Origin: Candidatus Bathyarchaeota archaeon
GTDB lineage: Archaea > Thermoproteota > Bathyarchaeia > 40CM-2-53-6 > RBG-13-38-9
Direction: 5' to 3'
Length of the DNA stretch: 64,000 nucleotides
Assembly (NCBI GenBank): GCA_963807605.1
Contig: CAWECG010000001.1
Location: forward strand, 73,152 to 137,151
Part shown: positions 13,276-15,771 of the stretch, piece by piece
Position numbering within the stretch: position 1 is the stretch's first letter
How the letters are laid out: each line of letters opens with the position of its first letter
Program-made: the position numbers and the translations under genes
Notes under the pieces: model-generated
What the model was told of the DNA's origin: nothing
The model's database searches: none
What the model saw: only the letters and a program-made list of their open reading frames with translations

Positions 13276-14088
13276 TCAGACTCTCACGAGACTAATGTTC
13301 ATCTTTTCAAGCGTTGAGACTAGCTTCTTCCTAGCCTGGGATTTGAGACCCTTCCAGTCGATCACAGCCGTATCACAACCGCCAAGCGTTCTTCTGAAAG
13401 CTTGATCGACAACATACGAATCATACTCTTGAAAGAAGTAGTCTGGGAGTATGTGGCCAATGGCAAAGTCTCCCTCGGCAACGGTGGCTGTATGTTTTGG
13501 TGAGTAGTGACCGCCACCGAAGCCTACTGCTGACTTGCCTAGTCCGCGTTCGCTGGCGGCCTTTAACGCGGCTTCGGCCGCAACCTCGGCTGCTTTTACA
13601 CTTATCCACTGCTGGTTGGTACTGCCGATCTCTACGAATAGGACGGGCGTATGAAGTTCAGTCGGTCCATGATGTGTCGCCTCTAATGAGACGGAGTATT
13701 CTCGAAGTCCCAGTTGGTTGGTCGATTCCAAGAGTGCATTGAGGGCGGACTGCAGTCTCTGAGGGTCGGCCCAAGCCAGGGCTCTCGGAAAGCCTCCAAA
13801 CCGGTTGCTGCGTCCCGTGTTACCCGGCACGTGAGCTGTCAAAGTGGGCCTGCCGCTCCCGCTACTGTGACGTGAGATGCAGACTATGGCTTCAGCATGG
13901 TAACTCAAATCGGCATCGCGCATGTCAAGAACATCTCCGTCTACCTGCAAGAGCAGGAGATCCCCTTTTTCAAAGACGGTTTTCTTTCCATTCTCTGTCC
14001 GGTATTTGAATCCGAAATTGGCAACTAGTCTTTCGGCGATGTTCGTTGCTGCTGGGTCAGACTTCGATCCCACTATTAAGACAGGCAA
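13276..14088 (-). CDS. dtdA: D-aminoacyl-tRNA deacylase (DTD2/GEK1 family)
   Basis: SRHSS..G.PTLTAHVPGN, EATHHGPT, FVEIGS, GFGGGHY. Confidence 0.93.
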   Translation of the reverse strand: MPVLIVGSKSDPAATNIAERLVANFGFKYRTENGKKTVFEKGDLLLLQVDGDVLDMRDADLSYHAEAIVCISRHSSGSGRPTLTAHVPGNTGRSNRFGGFPRALAWADPQRLQSALNALLESTNQLGLREYSVSLEATHHGPTELHTPVLFVEIGSTNQQWISVKAAEVAAEAALKAASERGLGKSAVGFGGGHYSPKHTATVAEGDFAIGHILPDYFFQEYDSYVVDQAFRRTLGGCDTAVIDWKGLKSQARKKLVSTLEKMNISLVRV

Positions 14089-14121: not shown

Positions 14122-15070
14122 TCAAAGAAGCAAAGCTAGGAGGCTTTTCGTTGTGTGTAGTCTGTTTTCAGCTTGATCCCAAACCACGGATTGAGGGCCG
14201 TCGATAACCTCTCCTGTGACTTCCTCACCTCTTCGACAAGGAAGTGGATGCATAAAGATGGCTGCGCTGGATGCTGAAAGCATTAATTCGGAATTGACTT
14301 GGTATTCCGGTAGGAAAGATCTCAGTCTCTCCTCTCTCTCAGCCTCCTGTCCCATGCTCACAAAGACATCCGTGTAGACAATGTCTGCTTCTGCAACTGC
14401 GTGCTTAGGGGATGTGGTGATGTCAACACTCGAACCTGTAGTCTCAGCGTTTTTTTTGGCTGTTCTCACGAATTCGGGGTCAGGCTCGTATATGGCTGGG
14501 CAGGCGACTGCTATGTTTATGCCCATCTTTGAACAGCCGATCAAGAGAGAGTTGCAGACGTTGTTACCATCTCCGACATAGGCTAAAGTGAGGTTTTCAA
14601 GGGTGCGTTTCTTCTCCCAGATTGTCATAAGATCTGCGATGGTCTGCACAGGATGTTCCTTATCGGACAGACCATTTATTACTGGTACAGCCGAGTATCG
14701 GGCCAACTCATCCAGTGTGCTGTGTGAGGTCACTCTGGCAACTATTCCGTCAACATACCCGCCAAGTGTTCTGGCCGTGTCGGCTACAGTCTCTCCCCGG
14801 CCAAGCTGCAAGTCTAGCCAATTCAGATAGAGCGCATGCCCGCCAAGTTGACGCATAGCCACTTCAAATGAGGCTCTTCTCCGATCACCAAGGTTAGACC
14901 TCAGGTGATGTTCGGGTAGAGGGCTTCTGAAAGATCATAGCCAGACTCTTACTTGGAAGTAGCTTGGACATCCGTCTCCTCTTAAGATTCCTTGCAAACT
15001 TCAGGGTTCGCCAAATTTCACTATTCCCGTAGTCCTGCAGTGAGAGGAAGTCCCTTCCCTTTATCGACAT
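14122..15070 (-). CDS. argF: Ornithine carbamoyltransferase, two exons (15070-14910 and 14878-14122), 305 aa after removal of the 31-nt insert
   Basis: ATG 15070 follows an AGGTGA SD; exon 1 reads MSIKGRDFLSLQD...MIFQKPSTRT; exon 2 reads RASFEVAMRQLGG...INGLSDKEHPVQ, GDGNNV, YTDVFVSMGQE, MHPLP, DQAENRLH. Confidence 0.93.
14879..14909 (-). other. Putative bulge-helix-bulge/loop (tRNA-type) mRNA intron, 31 nt
   Basis: mRNA reads CUCU-AC-CCGA-AC^A-UCACC(UGAGGUCUAACCUU)GGUGA-UCGG-AG^A-AGAG. There is a 4-bp CCGA/UCGG helix between two 3-nt bulges, and excision restores both the frame and STRTR. Confidence 0.82.
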
Positions 15071-15237
15071 ATTTTCACCTGAGAATAGTGGTGAGGTGGC
15101 AGTATATAGTCGCTAAGGAAGCGGATCTGTGGTCGCGTTGAATTGGCATACGAAAAAGAAAATGTTGTGATATCCGCCTAGATAAAAAGGGGTATGACTC
15201 GCCGTTGCGTTAGTGGATGCTCCCCCAGGTCTCTACA

Positions 15238-15771
15238 TCACGTAGCTTCAAACTCTATTCTCAAAGTCATGCCGCTGATCTCCTTTGCAAGTCTTCTGGC
15301 AAGCTCAAAGTCAACGGGCATGTGTCGAGGTCTTCTTCCGTGAAGTATGACTTTAGTCTCAGTAATCTCGCCAGGCAACCAGACAGTGTTGATCGTCAGA
15401 ATTGAGATTGGACTGAAAAGATCCTCTATGAGTTGCCTTGAGTCGCCACTATAGCCGAGAACCTTGATTCTACGACCCGTCTTCTCTCCTACGGCACGCA
15501 CAATCTTCCCACCAGAGCTAAGCACCTTGCCAACATCCTGTTTGTTAACTAGTATGGCTAGAACCTCCCCGGATTCAATAGCTCGTTCAAACGAGACGTC
15601 CTGCAGTATTGGAAACTCTTTCTCCAACTCATATAGGATTCTAACGATCCTTAGGTCTAGGTCTGTTATCTGGCCTTTTCTGAGTTTCTCCTCGCACCTT
15701 GGACATAAGACTCCGCTCTTGACACAGAAGTTGTCCAGAGTGGTCTTCACCAAGATGTTTTCCTCCAACAA
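15238..15771 (-). CDS. NusA-like KH-domain transcription factor (archaeal)
   Basis: N-terminal C.KSG.LCPRC..K, KH-like GKVLSSGGKIVR, INTVWLP. Confidence 0.8.
   Translation of the reverse strand: MLEENILVKTTLDNFCVKSGVLCPRCEEKLRKGQITDLDLRIVRILYELEKEFPILQDVSFERAIESGEVLAILVNKQDVGKVLSSGGKIVRAVGEKTGRRIKVLGYSGDSRQLIEDLFSPISILTINTVWLPGEITETKVILHGRRPRHMPVDFELARRLAKEISGMTLRIEFEAT

Follow-up and report, generated by a model that had tools for sequence, protein, structure and literature searches.

How could an archaeon make ornithine carbamoyltransferase from an argF gene whose reading frame stops after 58 codons? The question is raised by a 64,000-nt stretch of the genome of a Candidatus Bathyarchaeota archaeon (the window, whose coordinates are used throughout unless another locus is named), in which argF lies on the minus strand and carries an insert of 31 nt. 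The genome that holds the window comprises 2.65 Mb in five contigs, and the nearest named argF loci belong to metagenome-assembled genomes (MAGs) of Bathyarchaeia. A sequence-only reading of the window had proposed that the insert is a tRNA-type intron in the argF mRNA, with a bulge-helix-bulge (BHB) or bulge-helix-loop (BHL) motif cut by the splicing endonuclease EndA. The comparisons described here point the same way: the insert is very probably a BHB-type mRNA intron that EndA would excise and whose flanks RtcB would join, and with this the conserved site, the covariation, the reading frames, independent DNA and the EndA and RtcB genes all agree.

The gene is laid out as follows:

15075 to 15079, minus strand: GGTGA, a Shine-Dalgarno-like sequence of putative function, 4 nt upstream of the ATG
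14910 to 15070, minus strand: argF exon 1, 161 nt, from the ATG at 15070 to the second base of the 5' bulge
14879 to 14909, minus strand: candidate argF intron, A...AG, 31 nt (equivalent placement 14878-14908)
14122 to 14878, minus strand: argF exon 2, 757 nt including the stop

The first frame reads ...FQKPSTRT, continues into SPEV and meets UAA at 14896-14894, giving an open reading frame (ORF) of 58 aa (14894 to 15070); read by frame, translation of argF without excision ends after these 58 residues. The second frame, open from shortly upstream, reads ...RRRASFEVAMRQLGG and runs to the stop at 14122. Divided at the predicted cuts, exon 1 codes M...FQKPSTR plus the first two bases of a Thr codon, and exon 2 supplies the third base of that codon, followed by RASFEVAMRQLGG.... 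Through comparison with Pfam, the first piece was matched to positions 1-54 of the OTCace_N profile, and the second to positions 59-148 of OTCace_N and 2-157 of OTCace. OTCace_N is the carbamoyl-phosphate-binding domain and OTCace the Asp/Orn-binding domain. Since the two pieces fall on consecutive parts of the profiles, the gene is, judged by its domains, an ornithine/aspartate carbamoyltransferase gene interrupted within its STRTR motif. Excising 14909-14879 (or 14908-14878) in silico leaves 918 nt coding for 305 aa; joining ACA to AGA GCC needs 31 bases out, and two equivalent placements achieve this, with no others. What the sequence-only reading had stated about the letters of argF held throughout when frames, Pfam matches, fold and excision were read again.

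The insert is real DNA and not an artefact of assembly. Contigs from three other studies cover 14874-14921 with 0 gaps; two of them continue unbroken beyond both ends of the insert, and the third stops at 14935. These contigs differ from the window at 7 to 18 other positions, including one base of the hairpin loop, and in none of the three sets of contigs did a joint without the insert appear.

The distribution of the insert among relatives was followed by searching 41 genomes of the same order and taking the best 30 argF loci. In the window's own family, all 11 loci that cover the site (genomes G000, G002, G003, G005, G006, G008, G009, G011, G013, G014 and G015, from at least six genera) have an insert of 30 to 34 nt directly after STRT, while in nine other families of the order all 19 loci are uninterrupted and read STRTR.S[FLI]E. 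The collection contains 16 genomes of the family; in four of them nothing argF-like matches at E <= 1e-40, and a fifth retains just a C-terminal fragment where its contig ends. A broader genome collection yielded 80 loci, 66 of them uninterrupted, 10 undecided by the motif search, one a spurious regular-expression pair, and three with an insert, which are repeats of the family genomes. The upstream frame ends 13 to 85 nt past the 5' site in 11/11 orthologues, and the 30-nt and 33-nt inserts hold in-frame stops. The cut rule applied by the sequence-only reading, after the second base of each three-base element, reproduced its 918-nt, 305-aa frame for the window and gave an open frame of 303 to 314 aa in 11/11 orthologues. 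The spliced argF frames are under purifying selection: of 55 pairs, 19 gave a usable synonymous rate (dS), which was saturated or undefined in the others, and for these 19 the ratio of nonsynonymous to synonymous substitution rates (dN/dS) is 0.10 at the median and 0.31 at most. The intron would have had a single origin at the base of this one family and been retained since.

The predicted RNA structure is made up of these elements, in transcript order:

14918 to 14921, minus strand: outer helix h, 5' strand CUCU, pairing with 14874-14877 and offset by two bases from the central helix H
14912 to 14915, minus strand: central helix H, 5' strand CCGA, in exon 1, pairing with 14881-14884
14909 to 14911, minus strand: 5' bulge ACA, with the predicted cut after C14910; ACA in 11/11 genomes
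14885 to 14908, minus strand: intron hairpin h', UCACC (14908-14904) with GGUGA (14889-14885)
14881 to 14884, minus strand: central helix H, 3' strand UCGG, in the intron, from the minimum-free-energy (MFE) fold and orthologue comparison
14878 to 14880, minus strand: 3' splice-site bases AGA, with the predicted cut after G14879; AGA in 11/11 genomes
14874 to 14877, minus strand: outer helix h, 3' strand AGAG, in exon 2, from the MFE fold

The hairpin h' is capped by GAGGU (14902-14898) paired with ACCUU (14894-14890). The MFE fold of 14930-14866 reaches -20.1 kcal/mol (z = -2.59); among 200 shuffled sequences, 2 were equally stable. Taken alone, the argF fold is weak evidence. All helices described by the sequence-only reading and its 5' bulge ACA stand, whereas the AGA that it gives as a three-base bulge is not a clean one. 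The 3' AGA faces two bases instead, and the argF motif is therefore a relaxed form (HBh' or BHL-like) and not the canonical hBHBh'; the same reading had spoken of a relaxed bulge-helix-loop variant, and in this the MFE fold bears it out. A strict motif, defined by a 4-bp H and an h' of at least 4 bp, each with at most one G-U pair, and by two 3-nt bulges, has 113,286 matches over 5,306,434 strand positions and 147 spacings in the whole genome, about 1.5e-4 per position and spacing. At this density it is unlikely that the motif fell by chance on one of the two frame-restoring placements in argF.

The structure of the insert is kept by compensatory changes while its inner sequence drifts. In the 11-genome alignment (13 pairs, 143 pair cells), standard pairs occupy 90.2% of the cells, against 28.7 to 45.8% when the partners are slid by 1 to 3 columns. 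Two of the five h' pairs change on both sides (11 cells: GC:6/AU:5; CG:4/UA:4/AU:2), 0 of 500 shuffles match the observed covariation score, and in 10 of 11 orthologues the MFE fold closes the hairpin. The outer helix, both strands of which are coding, is paired in 90.9% of its cells. The test of stem covariation suggested by the sequence-only reading has a result for each stem: h' covaries, and H and the outer helix do not. By using a pattern search of metagenome contigs, 16 more loci were found with 12 distinct inner sequences, all but one of which form closed hairpins, the hairpin being the only part of these sequences that is independent evidence; in 12 of these loci exon 2 stays open for 253 codons, and in the remaining four for 45 to 223. 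The genomes and metagenomes pooled comprise 27 sequences, 19 of them distinct, with introns of 29 to 34 nt, and their h' positions 3 to 5 hold AT/GC, CG/AT and CG/TA/AT pairs. Among the 19 distinct sequences, the second and third pairs of H are formed in 19/19, the fourth in 18/19 and the first in 13/19.

The sequence-only reading had also surmised that argF belongs to a wider set of mRNA introns, and inserts of the same build are present in cbf5 and nadE (NAD synthase) of the same genome:

L115 1363-1381 (G000:C3, about 1,143,681-1,143,699), plus strand: cbf5 insert, 19 nt, BHB-type
L117 826-857 (G000:C3:875125-875156), plus strand: nadE insert, 32 nt, BHB-type

The cbf5 frame breaks after GHGGTL and continues out of frame. 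Its insert folds with a CCCU/GGGG helix, bulges AGA and AGA, and a GGCU-GAGA-AGCC hairpin, and the same cut rule joins G to AC as the codon of the catalytic Asp, restoring GHGGTL followed by DP. In 30 loci (L148-L177) drawn from every family of the order that was sampled, 29 have an insert of 17 to 23 nt at this site and one is undecided. The cbf5 introns of Crenarchaeota sit at the same catalytic position (PMC2738675). The classical crenarchaeal cbf5 intron site is, to judge from these loci, apparently occupied throughout the Bathyarchaeia order.

The nadE insert follows ...KSEMMLG and begins with a stop, the break reading GGA UAG. The two pieces of the gene match positions 2-136 and 138-242 of the NAD_synthase profile. 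A UCGG/CCGA helix, bulges AUA and AGA, and an 8-bp hairpin make up the fold, and the same cut rule joins U to AU as the conserved Tyr of GY.TK.GD. An insert of 30 to 34 nt is found in 9/9 close orthologues of the family (L118-L126), with a hairpin that covaries by eye; it is absent from 20 other loci, including two divergent homologues in family genomes, and one locus is undecided. In argF, cbf5 and nadE alike, both three-base elements have the form A-N-A (ACA/AGA, AGA/AGA and AUA/AGA), so that A is the first base and AG the last two in each of the three introns; some nadE orthologues have AAA as their 3' element.

The scan for BHB-fold inserts in frameshifted genes, another check named by the sequence-only reading, recovered argF and cbf5 and found nadE. 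Of the 113,286 strict-motif matches, 3,522 passed an ORF-fusion filter, most of these survivors being operon junctions or alternative-frame artefacts. Restriction to A.A bulges left 16 candidates with 3 convincing ones; this criterion was learned from two of the three convincing genes, and the scan is neither unbiased nor exhaustive. A codon-usage filter discarded argF (exon-1 score -1.2), so that this filter loses true cases.

The genome also encodes the enzymes that such splicing would need. There are two paralogues of EndA, 188 aa and 175 aa long, and both Pfam domains occur in each. Over its whole length the 188-aa protein can be aligned with the catalytic subunits of heterotetrameric crenarchaeal enzymes, 2cv8_A (1.2e-38), 3p1z_B (3.3e-37) and 2zyz_B, and it has K and K opposite K44 and R46 of A. 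pernix EndA. The A. pernix K44/R46 loop confers broad specificity, BHL motifs included (PMC3241643). By sequence, then, the 188-aa protein resembles a crenarchaeal-type alpha subunit with a specificity-loop lysine. RtcB is encoded as well (match at 7.8e-173). As for the pathway, argG (in two copies), argH and carA are intact, and a functional ornithine carbamoyltransferase is therefore to be expected. The only other match to the argF query in the genome is a 27%-identical homologue with a frame of about 309 aa, which is consistent with an aspartate carbamoyltransferase. ARAGORN reports only 31 tRNA genes and gives most of them introns, which lie at odd positions and in some cases are several hundred bases long; this suggests that the tRNA genes of this genome are heavily interrupted and poorly handled by that program.

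From these elements a mechanism can be proposed. The argF gene would be transcribed with its insert, and in the transcript the exon-1 CCGA and the intron UCGG would form a 4-bp helix flanked by ACA and AGA, with the rest of the intron as a hairpin; this step is based on folding and covariation. A heterotetramer-type endonuclease, made up of the two paralogues with the 188-aa one as catalytic subunit, would then cut after the second base of each element, as has been established for the introns of tRNAs and cbf5. By that rule the cut falls between the second and third bulge residues (PMC2738675). RtcB would ligate the exons, and the rebuilt Thr codon, AC plus A, would restore STRTRASFE and, in silico, a 305-aa ornithine carbamoyltransferase. 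Introns of the same build would be handled likewise in nadE within the same family and in cbf5 across the whole order.

Several observations weigh against this account or set limits to it. At the 3' site, AGA (14880-14878) is no clean three-base bulge, since A14917 and C14916 lie opposite, the MFE fold pairs C14916 with G14879, and the outer helix is offset. Four genomes, all of one genus, have an A-G mismatch at the first pair of H, and one genome has G-A at the last. Neither H nor the outer helix covaries, and both are uninformative on structure because the codons hold their exon strands constant. For the 16 metagenome sequences, the search pattern dictated where the ends lie. When strict BHB matches were compared with ARAGORN intron boundaries, 0 coincided, but several of the ARAGORN calls are implausible and the comparison is given no weight. 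Finally, a search for RNA runs holding 14122-15170 returned none, and it is from DNA sequence alone that we infer the splicing, and from the protein sequences the heterotetramer type of EndA and its likely acceptance of the argF motif.

Among the other explanations, the one that fares best accepts that the insert is removed and assigns the removal to a route other than EndA and RtcB, either another RNA-processing activity or DNA excision in part of the population. The acting enzyme is read from genes, and the departure of the 3' site from a canonical bulge leaves room for such a route, which is nonetheless quite improbable: the predicted EndA cuts are exactly the frame-restoring placements in three genes, no insert-free contig occurs in the three DNA runs, and no Rfam family was found at E <= 1. 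One of the three genes, cbf5, is moreover an experimentally established EndA substrate in Crenarchaeota (PMC2738675). Rfam yielded no match at the gathering score anywhere in the window, and none within 14780-15010 when the threshold was relaxed to E <= 1. A self-splicing group I or II intron, or a known ribozyme, was rejected as a candidate on the 31-nt size of the insert and this lack of an Rfam match. A mobile-element insertion, such as a miniature inverted-repeat transposable element (MITE) or the remnant of an insertion sequence (IS), was also rejected, there being no flanking direct repeat at 14878-14909 and no long inverted repeat.

A second explanation leaves the insert in the mRNA and has the ribosome deal with it, through translational bypassing of the kind known from phage T4 gene 60 or through programmed frameshifting. 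The stop soon after the break and the hairpin in the gap give argF a superficial likeness to a bypass element, and the nadE break, GGA UAG, adds to it. Matching take-off and landing codons are missing, however, with ACA before the gap and GGAGA/AGA at its end (the slash marking the end of the insert), and among the insert lengths of 29 to 34 nt are some divisible by three whose inserts contain in-frame stops, so that no single frameshift works. What is conserved is the helix-bulge geometry, with no slippery site. In nadE and cbf5 bypassing and frameshifting are ruled out, because the codons for the nadE Tyr and the catalytic Asp of cbf5 are built from both sides of the gap and a ribosome cannot assemble them; by analogy the same would apply to argF, where this explanation is highly unlikely.

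Another possibility is a split gene, making two polypeptides of 58 aa and about 246 aa, or the C-terminal piece alone. Such genes are known in some archaea, and translation of a 246-aa product could begin from a GTG at 14862. That start would nevertheless drop R-A-S-F-E, part of the motif conserved in all 19 uninterrupted relatives, and no start codon lies between the insert and the GTG. A split gene also leaves the conserved BHB geometry and the covariation unexplained, and the split codons of nadE and cbf5 point to joining at the level of nucleic acid, which together make this explanation very improbable. That argF is a decaying pseudogene with a functionless lesion is hardly credible, even though the gene alone looks frameshifted with a premature UAA and the four family genomes without a match indicate that it can be lost, for the same site is interrupted in 11/11 orthologues from at least six genera, the further inactivating lesions that the sequence-only reading had named as its sign are absent from all 11 (with the insert taken out, their frames have neither a further stop nor a further frameshift, and dN/dS is about 0.1), the insert ends are invariant with hairpin pairing kept by compensatory changes, and 67 to 81% protein identity among the pairs listed excludes one copied contaminating contig.

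With EndA/RtcB splicing as the preferred explanation of the argF insert, it can be asked how it relates to known systems. A crenarchaeal cbf5 pre-mRNA intron was reportedly described by Watanabe in 2002 and Yoshinari in 2006. There are several likenesses between that intron and the one in argF: both are short, coding and set in a codon of a catalytic motif, both have an unconventional BHB-like motif with predicted cuts between the second and third bulge residues, and both have a variable interior with conserved ends and a host with hetero-oligomeric EndA, which for the argF host is a prediction (PMC2738675). The two differ in the host gene, a metabolic enzyme for argF and an RNA-modification enzyme for cbf5; in lineage, one family of Bathyarchaeia as opposed to Desulfurococcales or Sulfolobales; and in the kind of evidence, since splicing is experimental for several of the crenarchaeal genes and the argF intron is known from DNA.

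Relaxed BHB and BHL introns of pre-tRNAs offer a further comparison. They share with argF a 4-bp helix, three-base elements on opposite strands and a hairpin closing the 5' bulge, and, for hosts with an (alpha-beta)2 or epsilon2 EndA, the crenarchaeal specificity loop (PMC3241643). The argF intron differs in having no tRNA body for recognition, in its codon-constrained exons and in a junction that must preserve the frame. Another example is the BHB intron of Haloferax volcanii HVO_1309, an mRNA on which the splicing endonuclease acts at a BHB site, a step that for argF is predicted; that intron lies in the untranslated leader of a euryarchaeon and, unlike the argF insert, interrupts no codon or motif (Schwarz 2020, PMC7714728).

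Outside the archaea, the eukaryotic HAC1 and XBP1 mRNAs are cleaved by IRE1 at stem-loops and ligated, with a change of reading frame. Splicing by IRE1 and RtcB resembles what is proposed for argF in that a protein enzyme would cleave an mRNA at stem-loops, the pieces would be ligated and the frame altered. The endonuclease and the motif are different ones, and regulation has been demonstrated for HAC1/XBP1 alone.

The literature places these introns in a sparse field. In the papers searched, cbf5 is the one gene for which endonuclease-type introns within archaeal coding sequence are reported. The 2020 Haloferax paper names cbf5 as the sole additional BHB intron reported besides its own 5' untranslated region (UTR) case (PMC7714728), and Yokobori (2009) treats the splicing of genes beyond cbf5 as unconfirmed and at most predicted (PMC2738675). 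A search of open-access papers and bioRxiv returned no report of argF or nadE introns or of mRNA introns in Bathyarchaeia, and no paper in open-access full text or bioRxiv combines ornithine carbamoyltransferase with bulge-helix-bulge. The kind of intron is thus already known from the BHB-like introns of crenarchaeal cbf5, and what is new is the host genes argF and nadE and the Bathyarchaeia lineage: two enzymes of central metabolism with family-wide introns, together with a cbf5 intron across a whole order of Bathyarchaeia. In practical terms, annotation pipelines will label such genes as frameshifted or truncated, so that these archaea, which are widespread in sediment and peat, may be wrongly reconstructed as auxotrophs for arginine or NAD. 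The three genes further indicate that BHB introns can enter mRNAs on more than one occasion, in each case at a highly conserved codon, which bears on how they spread, and argF, nadE and cbf5 would serve as concrete substrates for asking whether EndA/RtcB splicing of mRNA regulates.

A wider proposal may be added, which we hold to be possible but rather doubtful: that in one family of Bathyarchaeia tRNA-type splicing has been extended from cbf5 to central metabolism, argF and nadE having each gained a BHB intron within the codon of a catalytic motif and retained it in several genera, and that arginine and NAD synthesis would depend on EndA and RtcB activity and could be tuned by it. If true, this would be an archaeal counterpart of the unconventional mRNA splicing of the HAC1/XBP1 style, and more such introns may hide as 'frameshifts' in MAGs of TACK and other archaea. 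BHB introns would then colonise mRNAs repeatedly, and it could be tested directly how protein-spliced introns arise in coding genes and how mobile they are.

Some minor observations complete the picture. Further candidate junctions from the scan, among them some at DEAD-box, thermosome, SRP54, dihydroorotase, NifS-like, GT2 and YchF-like motifs, were set aside; they have recognisable protein on the downstream side alone and are taken as chance open stretches upstream of positions within intact genes. A cysK-like candidate (G000:C3, about 1,073,900-1,073,950, minus strand), a cysteine-synthase-like gene that shifts frame between ...AAVKGYRLI and LTMPDTMSLERR, was rejected as an intron: the change is a 1-nt frameshift in a T run and looks like a sequencing error, a true lesion or slippage. 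In the window itself, argF is placed outside any arginine operon, with a D-aminoacyl-tRNA deacylase gene (Pfam tRNA_deacylase; 13276 to 14088, minus strand) downstream and a NusA-like KH-domain gene (15238 to 15771, minus strand) upstream.

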